Assembly: GCF_046105845.1 (NCBI RefSeq)
Contig: NZ_CP151004.1
DNA from: Escherichia coli
Lineage (GTDB): Bacteria > Pseudomonadota > Gammaproteobacteria > Enterobacterales > Enterobacteriaceae
Strand: one strand, 5' to 3'
Length of the DNA: 64,000 nucleotides
This document shows, piece by piece, positions 9,097 through 30,617 of this stretch. The translations under genes and the position numbers were made by a program. The notes below the pieces were generated by a model that was not told the DNA's origin, searched no databases, and saw nothing but the letters and a program-made list of their open reading frames with translations. Numbering within the stretch: the first letter of the stretch is position 1; every line of letters begins with the position of its first letter.

Positions 9097-10341
9097 ATGG
9101 CAACACTAACCACCACCCAAACGTCACCGTCGCTGCTTGGCGGCGTGGTGATCATCGGCGGCACCATTATTGGCGCAGGGATGTTTTCTCTGCCAGTGGT
9201 TATGTCCGGGGCGTGGTTCTTCTGGTCAATGGCGGCGCTGATCTTTACCTGGTTCTGTATGCTGCATTCCGGCTTGATGATTCTGGAAGCTAACCTGAAT
9301 TATCGAATCGGTTCTAGCTTTGACACCATCACCAAAGATTTGCTGGGCAAAGGCTGGAACGTAGTCAACGGCATTTCCATTGCCTTTGTGCTCTATATCC
9401 TGACTTACGCCTATATTTCTGCCAGCGGTTCGATTCTGCATCACACCTTCGCGGAGATGTCGCTGAACGTCCCTGCACGGGCAGCTGGATTTGGTTTTGC
9501 ACTGCTGGTAGCGTTCGTGGTGTGGTTGAGTACGAAAGCTGTCAGCCGGATGACAGCAATTGTGCTGGGGGCGAAAGTCATTACTTTCTTCCTCACCTTC
9601 GGCAGCCTGCTGGGGCATGTACAGCCAACGACCTTGTTCAACGTTGCCGAAAGCAATGCGTCTTATGCGCCGTATCTGCTGATGACACTGCCATTCTGTC
9701 TGGCATCGTTTGGTTATCACGGTAACGTGCCGAGCCTGATGAAGTATTACGGCAAAGATCCGAAAACCATCGTGAAATGCCTGGTGTACGGTACGCTGAT
9801 GGCGCTGGCGCTGTATACCATCTGGTTGCTGGCGACGATGGGCAACATCCCTCGTCCGGAGTTTATCGGCATTGCCGAGAAGGGCGGTAACATTGATGTG
9901 CTGGTACAGGCATTAAGCGGCGTGCTGAACAGCCGTAGCCTGGATCTGCTGCTGGTCGTGTTCTCAAACTTTGCGGTAGCGAGTTCGTTCCTCGGCGTTA
10001 CGCTGGGTTTGTTTGACTATCTGGCAGATCTGTTTGGTTTCGATGACTCGGCTATGGGCCGCTTGAAAACAGCATTGTTGACCTTTGCACCGCCTGTTGT
10101 GGGTGGTCTGCTGTTCCCGAATGGATTCCTGTACGCCATTGGCTATGCTGGCTTAGCAGCTACCATCTGGGCGGCAATTGTACCGGCGCTGTTGGCCCGC
10201 GCATCGCGTAAACGCTTTGGCAGCCCGAAATTCCGCGTCTGGGGCGGTAAGCCGATGATTGCGCTGATTCTGGTGTTTGGCGTCGGCAACGCACTGGTGC
10301 ATATTTTATCGAGCTTTAATTTGCTGCCGGTGTATCAGTAA
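9097..10341 (+). CDS. mtr: Tryptophan-specific permease Mtr (aromatic amino acid HAAAP family)
   Basis: 414-aa polytopic membrane protein [33 protein letters not shown]... Confidence 0.96.
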
Positions 10342-10401
10342 TTGAACGAGCCGGATGAGCAGTTTTCATCCGGCAATAATTCACAAGTACACGAGATGGT
10401 A

Positions 10402-10932
10402 TCAAATAAACCCCTGTTTATTATAAAGTTCTTCAGCGAGAGCTTCCCCGTGCTCATCGAAAAAAGCATCGGCGATAGTTAAATTTTCTGCCTTAGGATT
10501 TGCCGTTATTTTGCTACCATTGGCATCAAATTCGAGCGCGATAGCGGTCTCCGAACCCCACCAGTAATAATAAATTAGCGCAAAATTATTTTCCCCTGGC
10601 GTAATAAACTTCTCGATTCCCCGCACACAGGCCATGAGTGGCATGAAGATTTCATAGCTCTCTGAGAGAAATATGTGATCCATCGTGACTATCTGTGTTT
10701 CTTTATTAAAGTTGATATGTTCGGCATAAATATTCTTTTCACTTTCACCAGAATTACAAGCTGCAAGATTGTTAAGCATTTTTGCAGGATCGCCGTACAA
10801 CCGCTGCTTCTCGATAAACCATGGCAACCAGTCGTCATGGTCTTTGATATTTGTTGCTGGTGAATGGAAAAACTTCTCGAGGTTACTCTCGGTAATATGT
10901 GCATGAAGAAAAAAGGAAGCCGGTTCACTCAT
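10402..10932 (-). CDS. Hypothetical 176-aa acidic cytoplasmic protein; no recognisable family; accessory relative to K-12
   Basis: Intact ORF in a visibly AT-rich segment, divergent from the neighbouring YafK-like gene; no signal peptide; aromatic-rich patch IYYYWWGSE; no catalytic motif recognised. Confidence 0.6.
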   Translation of the reverse strand: MSEPASFFLHAHITESNLEKFFHSPATNIKDHDDWLPWFIEKQRLYGDPAKMLNNLAACNSGESEKNIYAEHINFNKETQIVTMDHIFLSESYEIFMPLMACVRGIEKFITPGENNFALIYYYWWGSETAIALEFDANGSKITANPKAENLTIADAFFDEHGEALAEELYNKQGFI

Positions 10933-11089
10933 AATGATTTTCTCTGGTAATAAGTCGATTTGTTCATTTCTCTGTTTGGCGATGATAAAACGATGACTAT
11001 TTTATAAAAGTACAGAACTGGACCTTTTATCTATTTCATATCATAAGAAAATATATACAAGAACTGGCTCAGAATAAGCGGAATACGAA

Positions 11090-11809
11090 ATGGGGCGTAA
11101 AGGACTACTTGCTATTGTATTGTTGAGCCTGTTTATCGCCATGATTTTTCAATTTTTCTGGCCTGCCCCACACGATGAACACGTTTTCCTGCCAGTTGAA
11201 AAACCTGTCGCACCGTCTTTAAAAATCATTCATCCTGGTGACCAGTTATTTATCCGCATTCTGAAAGCGGAAGATAAGCTGGAACTGTGGGCAAGCACCA
11301 ACAACAAGCCTTACGAACTCTATAAAACCTGGACTATATGCGCGTGGTCTGGTGGCTTAGGGCCAAAACACAAACAGGGGGATGGTAAAAGCCCGGAAGG
11401 TTTTTATGCCACCAACAAAGGGTTGCTTAACCCAAACAGCCGCTATCATCTGGCATTTAATATTGGTTACCCGAATGCTTACGATCGGGCAAACGGCTAC
11501 ACCGGTGATTTCATTATGGTTCACGGGAACTGCGTTTCAGCGGGCTGCTATGCCATGACCGATGCTGGTATTGAAGAGATTTATCAACTGGTGGCGCAGG
11601 CGCTGAATAGCGGGCAGAAGAGCGTGCCGGTGCATATCTTCCCGTTTGCGATGAACGAAGAAAATATGCGCCAGGCGCAGGTATGGCCGGAATATAATTT
11701 CTGGCGTATGTTGAAGCCCGGCTATGATTACTTTGAAAAAAATCGCCGATTGCCAACCATCACCGTTGAAAACCGGCGTTATAAAATCAGCCCAACAATT
11801 CTTCCTTAA
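11090..11809 (+). CDS. YafK/DpaA-like L,D-transpeptidase-fold protein (paralog of the Lpp-peptidoglycan amidase family); accessory relative to K-12
   Basis: 239 aa with N-terminal hydrophobic segment [19 protein letters not shown]; motifs [39 protein letters not shown] (His/Cys of the YkuD-type active site), FPF and KPGYDYFE match my recollection of YafK. Confidence 0.7.
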
Positions 11810-12794
11810 CATCCATCGCCAGTTCAAACGAATGCAGGCGCGCCTGGTGATCGAAAATCTGCCCGTTAACCATAATCTCATCGGCGTCGGTTTCGCGCAG
11901 GATCGACTGCAAGCCATGACGCACTTTCGCTTTATCACCCACCAGCGACATACTCAGCGCCTGCTGCACGCCATACTGCTCGGACGGTGACCAGAACTGA
12001 TCCATATTTTGAATCGGCGGCGGTAGTTGCCCGGTTTCGCCACGGCGCAGCTTCACAAAGGCTTGCTGCATTGAGGTAAAGAGAAATTCAGCGTCGCGGT
12101 TGCTGTCGGCGGCGATAATATTGATGCACACCATCGCATACGGTTTTTCCAGCCGTGCCGACGGTTTGAAGTTGCTGCGATAAAGATGCAGCGCCTGGAA
12201 CAACATATCCGGCGCGAAGTGTGAGGCAAACGCAAACGGCAGACCAAGCTGCGCCGCCAGTTGCGCGCTGTAAAGGCTGGAGCCTAACAACCACACGGGG
12301 ATTTTCTCGCCATAGCCCGGTACCGGGCGCACATGCGGATTGGGATCGCGGGCGTCAAACCAGTCCACCAGCTCCGCGACATCGCGGGGGAAATTATCAA
12401 TATCGCCGCTCATATGACGACGTAGAGCCATCATGGTTCGCTGGTCACTACCCGGAGCACGGCCCAGCCCCAAATCGATTCGCCCCGGATAGAGCGTATT
12501 AAGCGTGCCGAACTGTTCGGCGATCACCAATGGTGAGTGATTAGGCAACATCACGCCGCCAGACCCCAGATGCAGCGTAGTGGTATTCGCCGCCAGATAG
12601 CCAATCAAAACTGATGTTGCAGCACTGGCAATGCCGGTCATATTGTGGTGTTCTGCCAGCCAGTAGCGATGATAGCCGCGCTTTTCAGCCAGACGGGCGA
12701 GCTCGAGAGAGTGGGAGAACGCTTCCCGCGCTGAAGAGCCTTCGGGAATGGGGGCCAGATCGAGTAGCGAAAACGCAATGGTTTTATCAGTCAT
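11787..12794 (-). CDS. yhbW: Luciferase-like flavin-dependent monooxygenase family protein YhbW
   Basis: 335-aa ORF; sequence and position match YhbW; stop overlaps the 3' end of the convergent YafK-like ORF by 23 nt. Confidence 0.93.
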
Positions 12795-23790: not shown

Positions 23791-24885
23791 TTACCTGACA
23801 ATAACCGTAATGGTAGCTGATGCTTTAAAAGGTCCGGTCGACAATACTCCACCGACCAGATTTACAGGATAAGCCTGAAAGTGTGTTGTTCCTGCTCCGG
23901 TTTTATCTAGCAGAATGATGCCTGGATTAAATGGAACATCTACTTGCCCTTTAGTCACATCCATAAGGCGGATACCAACATCAGGGACATCATCACTTTC
24001 ACGGCGTCTTGCGACTAAATTATATTGATTAACATAATCTGAACCTTCAATTTTCATATACAAGCTATTGTTAATTTGGGACATATCACCGCAATCATAG
24101 GTAATATCAAAGCTTACTGGAGTGTAACCTGTTGGCATCTGATTTTGTAGGGTGAAACGTTGAGCGCTAATAAATCCAAGATTTACATTAATGGTATCAC
24201 CTTGATTTATTTTGCAACTTTGAGGTACCGTAATTCGGCCTTGAATATAGATTTTAGCAATATCCTTAATGGGACGTGGTGCAGCAGAAGTACTTGTCCA
24301 CGCAGCCTGGACTGAAGCAATATGTGTTTCAGGGATATTCAGTTCACCCAAAAATGGCGTAGTGACGTATAGTGTAATCGTTGTATTTTTACCAATAGAA
24401 AAGTCTGATCCCCGAACATTGGCTGGGTCGGCCATGCACACACTATTGTTTTTGTTAGCATGGTAAGTACCAGTACCGTCTCTAAGCGGTGTATATGAAT
24501 TGCTTGGAACCATAACAGATGGATTACCAGGAATGTCGTTTATTTGGGTTTTAATATCCAGATTAGAATTCAGTCGATAGAAATCTCGTTCTTTACCTTG
24601 AGTTATTAATGCAGATGTTACTGTATAATACAGGTTAACTTTACTACCTGCCGGACAAGAGCAGTTTAAGGTGTAATTGCTCCCAATAGCTGAATTCTTT
24701 ACCACATAATCTTTGCCGGCAACATTATTATCTTGTGTCCAGTCCTCAGAAGCATCTGTCCGAAATTCACCTGTTCCTTCACAATCACCTGTTGCTGCCT
24801 TTACCGATGGGCTAAGTAACAGGGGGGAGACCACGGCAGCAATAGACAATAGTTGTTTAATCATTTTGAAACTCCCTAAAGACAC
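23791..24885 (-). CDS. yraK: Fimbrial adhesin-like protein YraK (chaperone-usher fimbriae)
   Basis: 364-aa ORF with signal peptide; last gene of the yraHIJK operon. Confidence 0.9.
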   Translation of the reverse strand: MSLGSFKMIKQLLSIAAVVSPLLLSPSVKAATGDCEGTGEFRTDASEDWTQDNNVAGKDYVVKNSAIGSNYTLNCSCPAGSKVNLYYTVTSALITQGKERDFYRLNSNLDIKTQINDIPGNPSVMVPSNSYTPLRDGTGTYHANKNNSVCMADPANVRGSDFSIGKNTTITLYVTTPFLGELNIPETHIASVQAAWTSTSAAPRPIKDIAKIYIQGRITVPQSCKINQGDTINVNLGFISAQRFTLQNQMPTGYTPVSFDITYDCGDMSQINNSLYMKIEGSDYVNQYNLVARRRESDDVPDVGIRLMDVTKGQVDVPFNPGIILLDKTGAGTTHFQAYPVNLVGGVLSTGPFKASATITVIVR

Positions 24886-27398
24886 TTTGCCGAATCACGA
24901 ATAATGGGGGTAGTGATGTTCGCGCTATCGTTCAGACTAAACGTAAACTGGCATTGTTGGTTTATTCCACTTCCCCAGCGAACCTTCCAGGTTTGTGGTT
25001 TTTTATTAATGCCGGAGAGATAAATAACTCCAGCTTCATCGACAATACTTTGTTGGAATTGGCCTTCATTACTGGCAACAGCACCAAAAGGAATGGGCTT
25101 ACCTTGGACGTCAGTTAGTGCTAATAGCACTCTGTGACCGGTTTGGGCATTAAAATTTGCAACGACAGCGGCGCCCTGTCCTGGCACGACAATCTTTGCA
25201 GTCTCCTGGACATCTACATTATCCGGCATTGTAGTAGTGTCTAAGGCAATACGATTTTCCTGATAAGCCGTTAAATAAGGGATGACGGCGTAACCAAAGT
25301 AATCGGTGGCAATACCAGGGTAATTTTTAACCCGAATATTAGATGCACCCTGGGTATCAATTACGGCAAATGTATTACCCAGCGGTTGTGAGAGAGTCAC
25401 CCCATGGGGGTGTGCGACAATTCCACCTGAAAGACCATAGCTGAACTGGCGACTGTTTGACGTGTAATCATAGTTGGCGTTAACAGTGCCATAAGCAGAG
25501 CGGTAACTACCAGAAAGCGTACTGCCGTTATTATTATTTTCCTGGTCCATTCGTTGTTTAAAGCTGTAACTTAATCGGTTGTCATCAAGGAAAGAACCGG
25601 TAATGCCAGTCTCATATTGAGTTGAACGGTATTTTTCATCAGTGACACGAAACGTAGCTTGTGCATTAGGTAACCAACGATCCAGAGGCAGACTAATACT
25701 AAAAAAGATTGCCCTATCACTATCGCGATCGGAATAATCTGTGAATTGTCCACTCACGCTGTAGCTGATGCCGGCAAGATAGCCGTTCAGTCCGGCAGAA
25801 TAATTGCGATCATTTTGTTCTGCTCCCCAGTATTCTCGTTGTGCACCTGAAATATAAAAACTGAGATTATCAGTCAGCGTTTGGTTAACGTTGAAAATCG
25901 CTTCGCTGCGTTGGCGATTGTTTACATTAATATCACGTTGGTTTGCGTCGGCAAAGGTAAAAAAAACTGAGTTGGAATAGCGCGAGTAACTAAGAGAAAG
26001 GCTTGTTCCTGTTTCGGGTATATCTTTAATATATTGAAAACGTAAACCTTCCCCGGTAAATTTTTCTTTATTTTCTAACTTCGTTTTGGCATAAGTTAAA
26101 TCAACGGAAAGTGCGCCCAAAATACTCAATGTGCTACCGATGCCTAATGCTGCTGCTTGATAATCCTTGGATCCAGTTACCCCACCATAAAGAGTGAAAA
26201 TATTAGTAAGGCCGTAAAATGCTGTGCCTTCGATGAACTCTGGTTCTTTACTATTAGATGACGGGTCTGCACGAAATCGCCCTGCTGTCATGCTATATAA
26301 AAGATGGCCTGGCCGTTGCATAACAGGAAGTGCTGAAAACGGCTGAGTAAATTGGCGAACGGTACCATCGGCTTCTTCAATTGTAACGTCTAAATCACCG
26401 CTAAATGAGGATGGATAGAGATCGTTGATTTCGAATGCTCCCGCCGGGACATTGCTTTGATAAATTGTATAGCCATTCTGGCGGATGGTGACTATTGCGC
26501 TGGTATTGGCAATCCCACGGATAATCGGTGCAAAACCTCGTAAGCTATTCGGTAACATGTTCTCGTCAGAATAAATTCTGGCACCCGTAAACTGAACGCT
26601 GGAAAAAATTGTGCCATCAGTGGCGCTTTCACCAAGCACTAATTGCGACTTTAAACTCTTAATATCACGCTGCAACCAACTATTAATACTATCCCAGCGA
26701 GTCTCATTACTGCTATGTGTCCACGTGGAGTAATTACGCAACCGCCATGGGCCGATATTGACTCCATTTTGCATATTGAGATAAAACCTTTCATTCTTTT
26801 CGCTGTTACTATAATAACTGTTCGAGCCACTAAAACTGTAATTGGTAAACAATACTGGAATACCATGATCCCACCTGGCGGGATCAACATAACCAGAAGG
26901 GTCACGCCGCAGGGCAATTTGTGGAATGTCCAGGATGAGAGTGCTATGGTTGAGGTCTATCTTTGTTTTGCTTCCAGGTACGGTTTTGGATAAATCTGTT
27001 ATCAGGGCGTTGTCATCAAGAGTATTTAGTGAATTTATTTCGTCAACTTTAAAACCCAATTCGCGTAAAAGACCAACGGTAAGCTGTGGGCGAATTTCTC
27101 CATTATCATCTATAGCAAAAGTGATTTTTCTCTGAGTCACCTTTTTTTTATTGATAACGATCTCAACATCATAATCACCGGGACTATGAGTATTTTTACC
27201 GGAGAAAGCAGATAAATCGCTTGCCTTTTGACCACTCTTTGTTGTTTCCAGCAATGAGGGATCAAAATAGTAATTGTCAGCAATGGCATGAAGAGGGGAC
27301 AGAACTCCACCAGTAATAAGAACAGGTAATACTGTTTTTAACCAGCAGGAAAGTGGTTTCATAACAGGTAAAGAGATGCATTTTATTTTGGTTTTCAT
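24876..27398 (-). CDS. yraJ: Fimbrial outer-membrane usher YraJ
   Basis: 840-aa usher-family protein. Confidence 0.93.
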   Translation of the reverse strand: MKTKIKCISLPVMKPLSCWLKTVLPVLITGGVLSPLHAIADNYYFDPSLLETTKSGQKASDLSAFSGKNTHSPGDYDVEIVINKKKVTQRKITFAIDDNGEIRPQLTVGLLRELGFKVDEINSLNTLDDNALITDLSKTVPGSKTKIDLNHSTLILDIPQIALRRDPSGYVDPARWDHGIPVLFTNYSFSGSNSYYSNSEKNERFYLNMQNGVNIGPWRLRNYSTWTHSSNETRWDSINSWLQRDIKSLKSQLVLGESATDGTIFSSVQFTGARIYSDENMLPNSLRGFAPIIRGIANTSAIVTIRQNGYTIYQSNVPAGAFEINDLYPSSFSGDLDVTIEEADGTVRQFTQPFSALPVMQRPGHLLYSMTAGRFRADPSSNSKEPEFIEGTAFYGLTNIFTLYGGVTGSKDYQAAALGIGSTLSILGALSVDLTYAKTKLENKEKFTGEGLRFQYIKDIPETGTSLSLSYSRYSNSVFFTFADANQRDINVNNRQRSEAIFNVNQTLTDNLSFYISGAQREYWGAEQNDRNYSAGLNGYLAGISYSVSGQFTDYSDRDSDRAIFFSISLPLDRWLPNAQATFRVTDEKYRSTQYETGITGSFLDDNRLSYSFKQRMDQENNNNGSTLSGSYRSAYGTVNANYDYTSNSRQFSYGLSGGIVAHPHGVTLSQPLGNTFAVIDTQGASNIRVKNYPGIATDYFGYAVIPYLTAYQENRIALDTTTMPDNVDVQETAKIVVPGQGAAVVANFNAQTGHRVLLALTDVQGKPIPFGAVASNEGQFQQSIVDEAGVIYLSGINKKPQTWKVRWGSGINQQCQFTFSLNDSANITTPIIRDSAKCL

Positions 27399-27450
27399 TA
27401 TTCCCTTATTTCCTTATTCCCTGTCATATGTATAAGTTTTGTATAAATAA

Positions 27451-28143
27451 TTATGGCAAAGTAGATGTATATGTATCCGTATTACCGCCATAGTCATTAA
27501 TGGCTGCCCATTTCACGATGTTTTCTGAAACTAATGGCAATGGTAATTGCTTATGTTCACCCGGTGCAATAAATTCTATTTTATCGGTAAAGTCGGTTTT
27601 TCCTACAGCCAGTCCTGAAAAAACAACGTAATATGCCGAAGGATTATATATCTCCAGTTGGTTGTTCTTCCTTGAGAATTTTAGGCCTTTATAGGCATCT
27701 GAAGGTCTACCGTCCATTTCTGATGGTCTGTAAAAGAGTTTAATGCGTGTTTTAAATACTAAAGTAAGTAGGTTCTTATCTTGCGTTTCTTTTTTATCGA
27801 CAGCAGGAATTGCACGGACGTTAATATAAAAAAGTGATTCTTTATCTCTCGGTAGATTGCCATCGGTTTTAATGATACGCAATGAAGAGTTGTCTCCGGC
27901 ATCAAGACGAAATAGCGGAGGGGTAATAATAAAAGGGCCGCGAGAAGAGTCATAGATATTTTCAACCCACGATTGTAATAAATATGGTGGTTTATCACTT
28001 CGATTAGTGACCGGCAATGCAGCTTCTTTTTTACTACCATCATAAACTACACGCGTTCTTTCCAGAAGGATTCCACCAGCCAGACTCTGGTTCACCCAGC
28101 CAGCTAATAGAAAAAGTATTGCAAACGATTTTTTAATCTTCAT
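27451..28143 (-). CDS. yraI: Periplasmic fimbrial chaperone YraI (PapD-like)
   Basis: 230-aa ORF with signal peptide. Confidence 0.92.
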
Positions 28144-28232
28144 CTTCTGTTACCGCTACGAAATAAAATTGTCTCTTTAACAGCAGACCGCTAAAGAGAC
28201 AAAATAAAGGATTATGAACTAATGACTAGTTA

Positions 28233-28805
28233 TCAACGATAATCAAGAGTTACATCCACAGTAGCATTAGCTTCACCGGGTTTGATTTTATCGGCTGTTG
28301 TGGTTGACACATAGTAAGCCGCTAAATCTAAATTCATCGTGGAACCAGTAATTGGGAAAGATATCTTTGGAACACTAAGTTTGTTAATTGCCATAGGTGT
28401 TTGAGCATCTTTTTCAATCCGAATACCAACACCTGTAGCCGCGGTATCTGGGTCCATACTTGTAACAGCAACTAACTCATTGTTATCACCGGTAGTTGCT
28501 CCGTTACGCGTTTCCAGCCATAACTGGAAAGACGCATCTTTAGTACCATCAATGTGATCCCAGGCTACCGTTGGGCAGTTTTTCAACGGAATAGTGAAAG
28601 GGATCGTAGGGGATTTATCCCCTTTAAACTTAAACTGATTAGCGGCATAGTGACCTAATTCAACATAAACTGTATCACCATTCGCAAATTCACAGACAGT
28701 GCCAAGAATTTCACCCGTGAATTCAATTTTTCCATCGGTTGCGGAGGCGCTACCGGCAAAAAGCGCCAGCAGGCCAGCGGCAACTGTCTTAGCTACTTTA
28801 CTCAT
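28233..28805 (-). CDS. yraH: Major fimbrial subunit YraH
   Basis: 190-aa fimbrial subunit with signal peptide; preceded by about 1 kb of AT-rich DNA. Confidence 0.9.
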   Translation of the reverse strand: MSKVAKTVAAGLLALFAGSASATDGKIEFTGEILGTVCEFANGDTVYVELGHYAANQFKFKGDKSPTIPFTIPLKNCPTVAWDHIDGTKDASFQLWLETRNGATTGDNNELVAVTSMDPDTAATGVGIRIEKDAQTPMAINKLSVPKISFPITGSTMNLDLAAYYVSTTTADKIKPGEANATVDVTLDYR

Positions 28806-29286
28806 AAGATAACCTTAGTCCTTGTAACTAGTACTTCGAATAAATATGAAATGTAAGATTCTTTTCAACAACAGAAACGATTATACCTACTGAAGCATGG
28901 AGTGGATAAAAAATAGTCATTTTTAAGAATATATTTATATTTCCTGAAGCTATTTAAAAACCATATATATTAGTATTGATTATGTTATGATGTGAATGTA
29001 GTAAGACTAAAAGGGTAATTATAAGTATAATTCAATGGGTTGATAGCAGTTATTGTAATGATAATCACTAATATTGACTTTTGTAGTTATGAGTTGTGAA
29101 CTGTAAGAATAAAATGTAATATGTTATGACGTTTAATAGTTGATGTTGTTAAATATAAGCTTAATTAAACTATATGATATTGAAAAAGTGGGGATGGATA
29201 ACTAAAACTATTTTGCCTGTATATACGAGCAGTGGAAGGGGTTTGCACAGGAAGCCCTTTCTTCTGTTGAACAGGCCTCCCCTACG

Positions 29287-29401
29287 ATGGTTGCAGAACG
29301 GGCGTTCTTCTGCGAGTGCTCTGACACGTTATCGATAGCCTTCACTGGCCGTGAATCAGACGATTATCAATACGAGTTAAGAGAATATTTGACAATGTCA
29401 T
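29287..29401 (-). pseudogene. Relic of a paralogous mannose-family PTS operon: 19-codon IIB-like start followed by a stop and an IID-like internal fragment
   Basis: Minus strand reads ATG ACA TTG TCA AAT ATT CTC TTA ACT CGT ATT GAT AAT CGT CTG ATT CAC GGC CAG TGA (MTLSNILLTRIDNRLIHGQ*), close to the agaB N-terminus; the next ~55 nt resemble agaD sequence near 30867-30945. Confidence 0.6.
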
Positions 29402-29454
29402 GTTTTTATTTCCTATCATCCATTTCACCTTTATTTGGTTTATCAGAGGGCAAT

Positions 29455-29482
29455 AAAAAAGGCAGATAATTAATTATCTGCC
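29455..29482 (-). terminator. Perfect-palindrome hairpin with flanking A/T runs (probable terminator for minus-strand transcripts)
   Basis: aaaaaa-ggcagataatt/aattatctgcc. Confidence 0.45.
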
Positions 29483-29852
29483 TGATGTGTCATGCTTTTT
29501 TTGCATCCGTTCTCATGTTTTTACCAGAAAATATCTTTGTGTGCCGAAGTTAAAACGTAAGTAATTTCACCGTTTTGCACATAGTGGCAGCAACCTTCAA
29601 TAATGATTCTGGCATTGCAAGCAAAATGATTGACCCATTCGGTCGCTGTGTGTCCGCTTTTTTCGTTGGCGGGTTTTGTTCTGATTACTGAACAACGTAA
29701 CGTGTTTATCTATAAATTAAACAGTGAACATAATTTCATTTTTAAGTGAAATTATGTTCAAGTTGATTACAGATTACTTAACTTAAAATATAGTTAATGA
29801 AGTTAAAGTATTGGTTTTGGCGTATTAGTCGTATTTCTGATAAAGAAAGTGG

Positions 29853-30617
29853 TTATGCTTTGCTTCTCTCTATTAAACAAATAAAGTTACTGTGCAGCCA
29901 TAAAAACGAAGCCGGGATAGCGGTGGAGACTTTAGCCGTGAGAAAACGTTCTGTCGCATCCTGCTTTCCTTCGCCAGTCACCAGTAACAAAACTTCGCGG
30001 GCACTGAGAATATCCTTCAGGCCTAAGGTGATCCCACGAATCACGGGACGGCCCGCGGTTTTTAACATCTCATGTTGCTGTGTTCTGGCATCAAGTTGAC
30101 TGATATGGCAGGCCGGTTGCAGGCTTTCTCCCGGTTCGTTCAGCCCAAGATGACCGTTTTTCCCCAACCCGAGAACGCATAAATCCAGACCGCCTTTGCG
30201 CGCAATCAGGTTCGTTACCCGTTCGCACTCTGTCTCATTTATCTCTTCGGAGCGAAAGCTGATGAGCTGGTCTTCACGCAGCCCCAGCGGCTGCACGATA
30301 TGCTGTTGTAGGAAAGTTTCGCAGGTGCCAGGCATCGTTAATGGCAGATCCACCCATTCGTCGAGCTTCACGAAGGTGAGCTGGCTGACATCAACCTGCT
30401 GCTGGTGGATTTTTTCTACCAGATAATGATACGTCAGTAATGGCGTGGCTCCGGTCGCCAGGCAAATCACGGCATCCGGTTTGCTACGGATCACGGCCAA
30501 TAAATATTCGCTGGCACGTTCACTTAACGCCGTATAGTTTTCAACTTGTTGAAGGGTTTGCACAGGATGAAATTCCTTAAGTAAAGAGGCACCGCCAGAC
30601 GCGGTGCCTCGTTCCAT
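29853..30617 (-). CDS. agaI: Galactosamine-6-phosphate deaminase/isomerase AgaI
   Basis: 254-aa ORF of the NagB/AgaI family; last gene of agaS-kbaY-agaBCDI. Confidence 0.92.
   Translation of the reverse strand: MERGTASGGASLLKEFHPVQTLQQVENYTALSERASEYLLAVIRSKPDAVICLATGATPLLTYHYLVEKIHQQQVDVSQLTFVKLDEWVDLPLTMPGTCETFLQQHIVQPLGLREDQLISFRSEEINETECERVTNLIARKGGLDLCVLGLGKNGHLGLNEPGESLQPACHISQLDARTQQHEMLKTAGRPVIRGITLGLKDILSAREVLLLVTGEGKQDATERFLTAKVSTAIPASFLWLHSNFICLIERSKA

Follow-up and report, generated by a model that had tools for sequence, protein, structure and literature searches.

A Salmonella-like presence/absence allele between mtr and yhbW of Escherichia coli, with a predicted second DpaA/YafK-type enzyme and an uncharacterised neighbour

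Overview

Between mtr and yhbW, in a 64,000-nucleotide stretch of Escherichia coli contig NZ_CP151004.1 (RefSeq assembly GCF_046105845.1; hereafter the window), lie two genes that diverge from a common spacer and encode proteins of 239 and 176 amino acids (aa). The comparisons reported here make it probable that the junction is a presence/absence allele with a second DpaA/YafK-type enzyme and a functionally independent neighbour, and that its Salmonella-like form has been moved by homologous recombination. The two genes would be transcribed independently of each other. The two-gene form occurs across several genera of Enterobacteriaceae, most E. coli have a 117-bp spacer resembling repetitive extragenic palindromic (REP) sequences instead, and the minority of E. 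coli with the Salmonella-like form would have gained it through recombination. The 239-aa enzyme would be exported by way of an N-terminal hydrophobic segment, probably kept as an inner-membrane anchor, and would face the periplasm, with Cys153 and His145 hydrolysing the amide that joins a protein or amino acid to meso-diaminopimelate in the peptidoglycan stem. The likeliest substrate would be the Lys of Braun's lipoprotein (Lpp), in which case the enzyme would supplement core DpaA. The 176-aa product is predicted to be a soluble cytoplasmic alpha+beta protein and would be a neighbour by descent, not an obligate partner.

Organisation of the locus

The open reading frame (ORF) list of the window places the following features in the interval.

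10402-10932, minus strand: 176-aa ORF; acidic, predicted cytoplasmic product, member of an uncharacterised ~180-aa family
10933-11089: divergent intergenic spacer, 157 bp between the start codons, 30.6% GC; presumably holds both promoters
11090-11809, plus strand: 239-aa ORF; by sequence, a paralogue of the DpaA/YafK-family (YkuD-fold) cysteine amidases
11787-11809: convergent 3' overlap of 23 nt between the 239-aa gene and yhbW, with stops at 11807-11809 and 11787-11789

Both ORFs are real genes and not chance ORFs, since homologues of them occur in several genera and the pairwise ratios of nonsynonymous to synonymous divergence (dN/dS), 0.07-0.12 for the 176-aa gene and 0.07-0.19 for the 239-aa gene, indicate purifying selection on both. 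A preliminary description of this DNA had recognised AT-richer DNA with two ORFs diverging from a 157-bp AT-rich spacer, and the coordinates and base composition agree with it. The guanine plus cytosine (GC) content is 0.432 over 10342-11786 and 0.306 in the spacer, compared with 0.53-0.56 in the flanking genes; the GC profile runs at 0.37-0.43 along the segment against ~0.55 in the flanks, and GC at third codon positions (GC3) is 0.42 in the 176-aa ORF and 0.51 in the 239-aa ORF against 0.63-0.67 in mtr, yhbW and ubiV. The same description had read the 23-nt overlap with the end of yhbW as a sign of tight insertion. The overlap is present, but it is the normal layout of the locus and not an insertion scar, because the same junction has an overlap of 23 nt in Salmonella and of 8 nt in the gut enterobacterium Ent5 (L005-L008).

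The 239-aa protein

The product of the plus-strand gene had been described as YafK/DpaA-like with a His/Cys pair, and the matches in NCBIfam, Pfam and PDB confirm this. The NCBIfam model LdtF_DpaA_YafK (NF040599) gave 252.5 bits (equivalog cut-off 365), the Pfam model YkuD (PF03734) matched weakly over residues 89-169 (E 2.8e-6), and phmmer against PDB sequences found 8ikr at E 8.9e-65 over residues 39-235. Entry 8IKR is E. coli DpaA (PMC13400389), and identity to K-12 DpaA (taken from NC_000913) is 45-47%. The catalytic pair aligns as follows.

11522-11548, plus strand: catalytic motif H145-G-N-C-V-S-A-G-C153, in which H145 (11522-11524) corresponds to DpaA H135 and C153 (11546-11548) to DpaA C143

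The catalytic Cys is the second Cys of this motif, C153, and is followed by Y-A-M, the same as in DpaA (G-C-Y-A-M), without the Arg conserved in L,D-transpeptidases; that active-site Arg is reported to be absent in DpaA as well (PMC8263019). Beyond the pair, K83, Q86, S107, R108 and Y109 of DpaA are kept as K93, Q96, S117, R118 and Y119. Among the DpaA positions for which mutants have been described only two are altered, both in loop L3, where K130 is replaced by D140 and Y131 by F141. Wang et al. (2023) have reported that DpaA K83A is inactive and that Y109A and Y131A have 0.7% and 4% activity, while Q86A, R108A and K130A have 41-64% of their activity left, with 64% for K130A (PMC10653827). 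The residues that weigh most for DpaA activity are, judged by alignment, kept in the 239-aa protein, and Phe at the Y131 position may keep the packing role of the Tyr.

DpaA resembles the 239-aa protein in its YkuD-type fold family, in the motif HG.CVS.GCYAMT, in the five conserved residues listed above and in core length. It differs in its C-terminal tail, the last ~17 residues of which are missing from the 239-aa protein, and in its locus and frequency, dpaA being found in 99.9% of E. coli genomes compared with 3.4% for the 239-aa gene. The two coexist: of the 5426 complete E. coli genomes, 5423 have dpaA, and at least 180 of the 183 with the segment therefore have both. The 239-aa protein is an extra paralogue and not the DpaA equivalog, because its score lies below the equivalog cut-off, its identity to DpaA is only 45% and dpaA itself is nearly universal. 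Its nearest relatives are from Salmonella (93% identity), other enterobacteria (76-81%) and Klebsiella oxytoca (67%), followed by those of Leminorella and Budvicia (64-66%) and of Snodgrassella, Fusobacteria and Sulfurovum (~55-60%). As each of these relatives is nearer to it than DpaA, the protein belongs to a distinct YafK subfamily and is not a recent duplicate of dpaA. Separately, dpaA-like DNA (>=95% identity over the whole gene) was observed at 15 plasmid places in complete E. coli genomes.

The N-terminus of the protein consists of MGRKG, then 19 hydrophobic residues, then WPAPHDE.

11105-11161, plus strand: hydrophobic segment, codons 6-24 (19 residues); uncleaved signal anchor predicted from sequence and hydropathy

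No site that meets the -3/-1 rule lies outside the hydrophobic core, and the only candidate Ala is followed by Pro. The clade relatives of the protein have similarly long hydrophobic N-termini. DpaA is a soluble periplasmic protein with a cleaved 19-residue signal peptide that ends in SFA, the mature protein beginning with G (PMC10653827). The 239-aa enzyme is probably held by an uncleaved signal anchor, with its catalytic domain on the periplasmic face of the inner membrane.

Distribution in Escherichia coli

A 1469-bp segment with the two genes occurs in 183 of the 5426 complete E. coli genomes (3.4%), once in each, always on the chromosome and always between mtr and yhbW; it is missing from the other 96.6%. 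A query spanning both flanks was covered in full in exactly those 183 genomes, and in the others it matched in the flanks only, ~140 bp apart. The adjacency of mtr and yhbW in K-12, on which the preliminary description had relied, was checked in strain DH1, where a 117-bp REP-like spacer (locus L001, 3499-3615) separates them and no remnant of either gene is found; homology between DH1 and the window reaches precisely to two stop codons, those of mtr and yhbW. Throughout the 5426 genomes the two genes are present or absent together. The locus is, as anticipated, neither a K-12 feature nor one of most E. coli with a function already on record. Neither gene was found on any plasmid, the sole match in the plasmid collection being a mis-filed chromosome: PLSDB entry NZ_CP141089.1 is filed as a non-mobilisable plasmid, is 4.94 Mb in size, contains the chromosomal segment and is evidently a chromosome. 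In E. coli E7476 and 08_3449, strains without the two genes, the IS110-family element IS621 is inserted at the mtr-yhbW junction.

The locus in other genera and its transfer

Four lineages besides E. coli have the order yhbW, YkuD gene (convergent), 176-aa gene (divergent) and mtr, and each genus with the pair has deaD, mtr, yhbW and ubiV/U around it.

Same pair at the mtr-yhbW junction: Salmonella enterica (L002/L003); Ent5 (L005-L008); Superficieibacter electus (L014); K. oxytoca-like (L022/L023)

The Salmonella counterparts of the two proteins are 93% and 95% identical to those of the window and their locus has the same 23-nt overlap, while the two Ent5 proteins are 69% and 79% identical. 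A published study has included S. Typhimurium Q8ZLT7 as a YafK-family representative beside the canonical Q7CR54; Q8ZLT7 was aligned only and the assays were on Q7CR54 (PMC13400389). Q8ZLT7 is probably the Salmonella orthologue of the 239-aa protein. No functional study of the 239-aa paralogue came up in literature searches on STM3277, on the RefSeq accessions or on Q8ZLT7. The proposal in the preliminary description that the two genes form an uncharacterised system did not stand, as RefSeq already labels both ('L,D-transpeptidase family protein' for the 239-aa product and 'hypothetical protein' for the 176-aa product) and the probable orthologue is part of a published alignment. The claim of a new system is unsupported, and the locus holds an uncharacterised member of a known enzyme family and a neighbour from an uncharacterised family.

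Compared with Salmonella, the window has a synonymous divergence (dS) of 0.19 in the 176-aa gene and 0.23 in the 239-aa gene, as against 0.73 in mtr and 1.02 in yhbW, and such low values in the segment beside high ones in the flanks are indicative of transfer by recombination. At the nucleotide level the two genes are 93-95% identical to Salmonella, the spacer 92% and the 60-bp gap on the mtr side 91.7%, whereas mtr, yhbW and ubiV reach 84-86% and the intergenic region between deaD and mtr 75%. Such closeness to Salmonella is limited to the segment, and the flanks follow K-12. The other genera show lower conservation in the segment (65-80%) than in the flanks (~82%), which is why the likeness between E. 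coli and Salmonella stands out. A second E. coli allele, from strain 2017-02-2CC, is at a dS of 0.13-0.17 from the allele of the window, and the YhbW adjoining it is identical to that of K-12. These patterns indicate an old enterobacterial locus, the E. coli and Salmonella versions of which would have been exchanged well after the split of the two species and then moved among E. coli by recombination in the flanks.

The 3' half of mtr in the window (9391-10290) is 90-95% identical to K-12, compared with 97-100% nearby, and is 80-86% identical to Salmonella, so that it is not Salmonella-like. This stretch, which adjoins the segment, probably came by recombination from a divergent lineage of Escherichia.

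The 176-aa protein

The 176-aa partner had been characterised as acidic, aromatic-rich, without a signal peptide and not assignable to a family, and each of these points was borne out. Its isoelectric point is 4.7, 14% of its residues are aromatic, it begins MSEPASFFLHAHITES and it has no hydrophobic N-terminus or other hydrophobic segment. Searches of Pfam, NCBIfam, PDB sequences (including a profile search), PADLOC and PHROGs gave no match, and of 47 relatives none (0/47) matched a Pfam model, the Imm and SUKH models included. An exhaustive search of 1.84 billion cluster representatives found 59 relatives at E<=1e-3, nearly all of 176-192 aa, and a profile search of 5.8 billion proteins returned only single-domain hypothetical proteins of ~180 aa, with no named member and no informative fusion. 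A metagenomic protein of 399 aa with two tandem copies of the domain (L013, 114-1313) is the sole fusion seen in the family, and apart from it no tandem paralogues were found in the fetched loci. In sources the family is termed 'cytoplasmic protein'. The gene beside that of Q8ZLT7 in S. Typhimurium encodes a 'putative cytoplasmic protein', probably STM3278. In the literature STM3278 turned up only in a list of computationally predicted type III effectors, an entry that was not relied on, as STM3278 is no more than a probable match to the 176-aa gene.

The family alignment (A1) shows that M1, S2, E3 and usually P4 are unusually conserved (MSEPxSL), together with F21, W35, W38, E91 (in FSENY) and W125. 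The AlphaFold2 model has a mean predicted local distance difference test (pLDDT) score of 95.4 and a predicted template modelling (pTM) score of 0.90, and is an alpha+beta sandwich with a long C-terminal helix. Foldseek comparison of this model with PDB gave meaningless antibody matches only, at template modelling (TM) scores <0.25, and comparison with AFDB50 returned the same family of uncharacterised ~180-aa proteins in Proteobacteria, Bacteroidota and Actinobacteria. A ligand- or protein-binding role for the ferredoxin-like core of the model is a guess. An N-terminal-nucleophile or tautomerase-like role for the invariant N-terminus was considered and rejected, since neither the predicted fold nor the proline's position suits it.

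In at least eight other contexts the 176-aa family has no YkuD gene beside it, namely Chania, Leminorella and the loci of P0023, P0027, P0035, P0044, P0057 and P0063. The Chania copy adjoins an Smr gene, and the six more distant contexts have unrelated neighbours. Both families are present in Leminorella grimontii, ~770 locus tags apart, and a scan of the genome collection with alignment A2 returned two loci only, those of Superficieibacter and Leminorella. The homologue of Chania multitudinisentens (Yersiniaceae; L004, 6001-6537) is 72-73% identical to the E. coli and Salmonella proteins, compared with 60-69% for those of other Enterobacteriaceae; being closer and yet in an unrelated context, it suggests further horizontal movement of the 176-aa gene alone.

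Alternative interpretations

The activity of the 239-aa enzyme could differ from that of DpaA on the same scaffold, as an L,D-carboxypeptidase, in the release of other peptidoglycan-linked proteins, or in slow serine-dependent turnover of beta-lactams, and such a departure is judged unlikely, if still worth reckoning with. DpaA homologues occur in numerous bacteria without Lpp, for which other substrates or L,D-carboxypeptidase activity have been proposed (PMC8263019). The relatives from Snodgrassella, Sulfurovum and Fusobacteria, among the nearest outside Enterobacteriaceae, are closer to the 239-aa protein (50-60%) than DpaA is (45%), the L3 cleft residues differ (K130D, Y131F), and the serine used for nitrocefin hydrolysis in YafK proteins is kept as S117 (DpaA S107). 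Against this, every residue shown to be essential for the DpaA amidase is conserved and the host has an envelope biology of the Lpp type. The L,D-carboxypeptidases Csd6 of Helicobacter pylori and Pgp2 of Campylobacter jejuni also have a single-entrance YkuD-type active site without the transpeptidase Arg (PMC10653827), but their similarity to the 239-aa protein is marginal (E 3.6e-6 and 8.7e-4, against 8.9e-65 for DpaA). The 239-aa protein is further set off from them by its equivalents of K83 and Y109, which have been described as conserved in DpaA-like sequences.

The constancy of the pair raises the question of a functional module, in which the enzyme would have the cytoplasmic 176-aa protein as its regulator, chaperone or sensor, for instance through shared regulation from the spacer. 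The genes stay adjacent and divergent in five enterobacterial lineages despite saturation at the silent sites that separate these lineages, the genes are co-present or co-absent in E. coli, and the spacer holds a conserved motif.

11010-11023: palindrome-like motif GTACAGAACTGGAC inside the spacer; candidate operator

In an alignment of the five lineages (A4) the invariant and near-invariant spacer columns cluster at these positions, where the spacers of Ent5 and Superficieibacter read GTCCAGAAATGGAC; the motif may be a binding site for a regulator. A module of this kind is nevertheless thought rather unlikely. On its cytoplasmic side the enzyme would expose no more than about five residues (MGRKG), the 176-aa family lives without a YkuD neighbour in the contexts listed above, with the two families unlinked in Leminorella, and adjacency within one bacterial family can be plain inheritance. 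An AlphaFold model of the two proteins fused through a 30-residue linker (176-linker-239) has a pTM of 0.56 with both domains at pLDDT >90, a weak result given that the paired alignment had only six sequences. A neighbourhood inherited by descent accounts for the pair better than a functional link does, with co-regulation possible.

The preliminary description had also raised an effector/immunity-like pair, that is, an antibacterial toxin of the L,D-transpeptidase fold with its cognate immunity protein. A known example is Tae5/Tai5 of the type VI secretion system (T6SS) of Salmonella pathogenicity island 6 (SPI-6), in which the effector is a DUF2778 protein without a signal peptide, the genes are bicistronic in T6SS loci, and the immunity protein is of a type that is periplasmic or membrane-bound, in the compartment where the toxin acts (bioRxiv 10.1101/2020.02.18.954545). 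Effectors of the Tae5 type share with the 239-aa protein a distant fold and His/Cys catalysis on peptidoglycan. The suggestion fails, however, on compartment, gene arrangement and co-occurrence: the export segment is on the enzyme and none is on the partner; the genes are divergent and not bicistronic, with core genes and no secretion-system genes in the flanks; and the 176-aa family does not travel with the YkuD gene. In addition, the enzyme is close to housekeeping DpaA and not to DUF2778, PADLOC gave no match, neither gene is on a plasmid, the fused model shows no confident docking (pTM 0.56), and the partner is more conserved than immunity proteins usually are (dN/dS ~0.1 and an invariant N-terminus). 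This interpretation is essentially excluded.

The 176-aa protein could instead be an orphan immunity-type protein against a toxin of other bacteria, unrelated to its neighbour. It is small, acidic and single-domain, its family is scattered over Proteobacteria, Bacteroidota and Actinobacteria, some of its relatives in the AlphaFold database have automatic 'SMI1/KNR4' labels, and some neighbourhoods contain genes of SUKH or leucine-rich repeat (LRR) type or DUF-only genes. But no toxin gene is adjacent in any context examined, none of the 47 members matches a Pfam Imm or SUKH model, tandem arrays of paralogues are lacking, and the N-terminal motif and the Trp and Glu residues are strongly conserved, so that an orphan of this kind would be a surprise.

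The account preferred here, a presence/absence allele with a second DpaA/YafK-type enzyme and an independent neighbour, has several points weighing against it. With K130D and Y131F in the L3 loop and a different N-terminus, the enzyme could have another substrate or activity than the amidase role proposed. The anchor was predicted from simple rules and not from a trained predictor. The divergent order kept in five lineages and the shared spacer palindrome are compatible with co-regulation and hence with a functional link. The transfer between Escherichia and Salmonella may have gone either way, and E. coli may have lost and regained the genes or may never have fixed them. A more far-reaching version can be drawn from the same material, in which the anchored DpaA paralogue would be a distinct amidase, acting on a substrate other than bulk Lpp or near the inner membrane under particular conditions, with its expression coupled through the spacer to a 176-aa protein that founds a new and widespread cytoplasmic fold family with an important processed N-terminus (invariant Met-Ser-Glu-Pro); taken together, this is considered improbable.

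Other features of the window

One further element lies between mtr and the 176-aa gene, whose 3' ends face each other.

10350-10374: perfect 9-bp inverted repeat GCCGGATGA-N7-TCATCCGGC, within the 60 bp that separate these two converging genes

This repeat is probably a hairpin or terminator shared by mtr and the 176-aa gene, with no T-run after it, and it was not called by the terminator scan. A sigma-70 consensus scan found no site in the 157-bp spacer, regional sites not being above chance, and Rfam gave no match in 10200-11900.

Two other low-GC regions were noted in the window. At 24000-30000 (GC 0.36-0.44) a fimbrial usher/chaperone/subunit operon adjoins agaI; this fimbrial allele is a rare variant, since of the 5426 complete E. 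coli genomes only one, that of the ivory gull strain MEW, covers it to at least 80%, at 99.7% identity. The region of yhaB, yhaC, tdcR, tdcA and tdcB at 48800-53600 (GC 0.32-0.43) is present in most E. coli and looks ordinary.

Implications

That DpaA renders the attachment of Lpp to peptidoglycan reversible was recognised only in 2021. A second member of the DpaA family with different targeting, which Salmonella and some other Enterobacteriaceae have as standard and E. coli has sporadically, could explain differences between strains in outer-membrane tethering, vesiculation and tolerance of envelope stress, and it matters for work on dpaA deletions in backgrounds that have the second enzyme. 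The 176-aa family, which is well folded and widespread and has no Pfam model or solved relative, is a reasonable target for structural and functional work. Neither the enzyme nor the 176-aa protein alters current understanding. Overall, the locus offers a clear case of Salmonella and Escherichia exchanging a small accessory cassette through recombination guided by its flanks.

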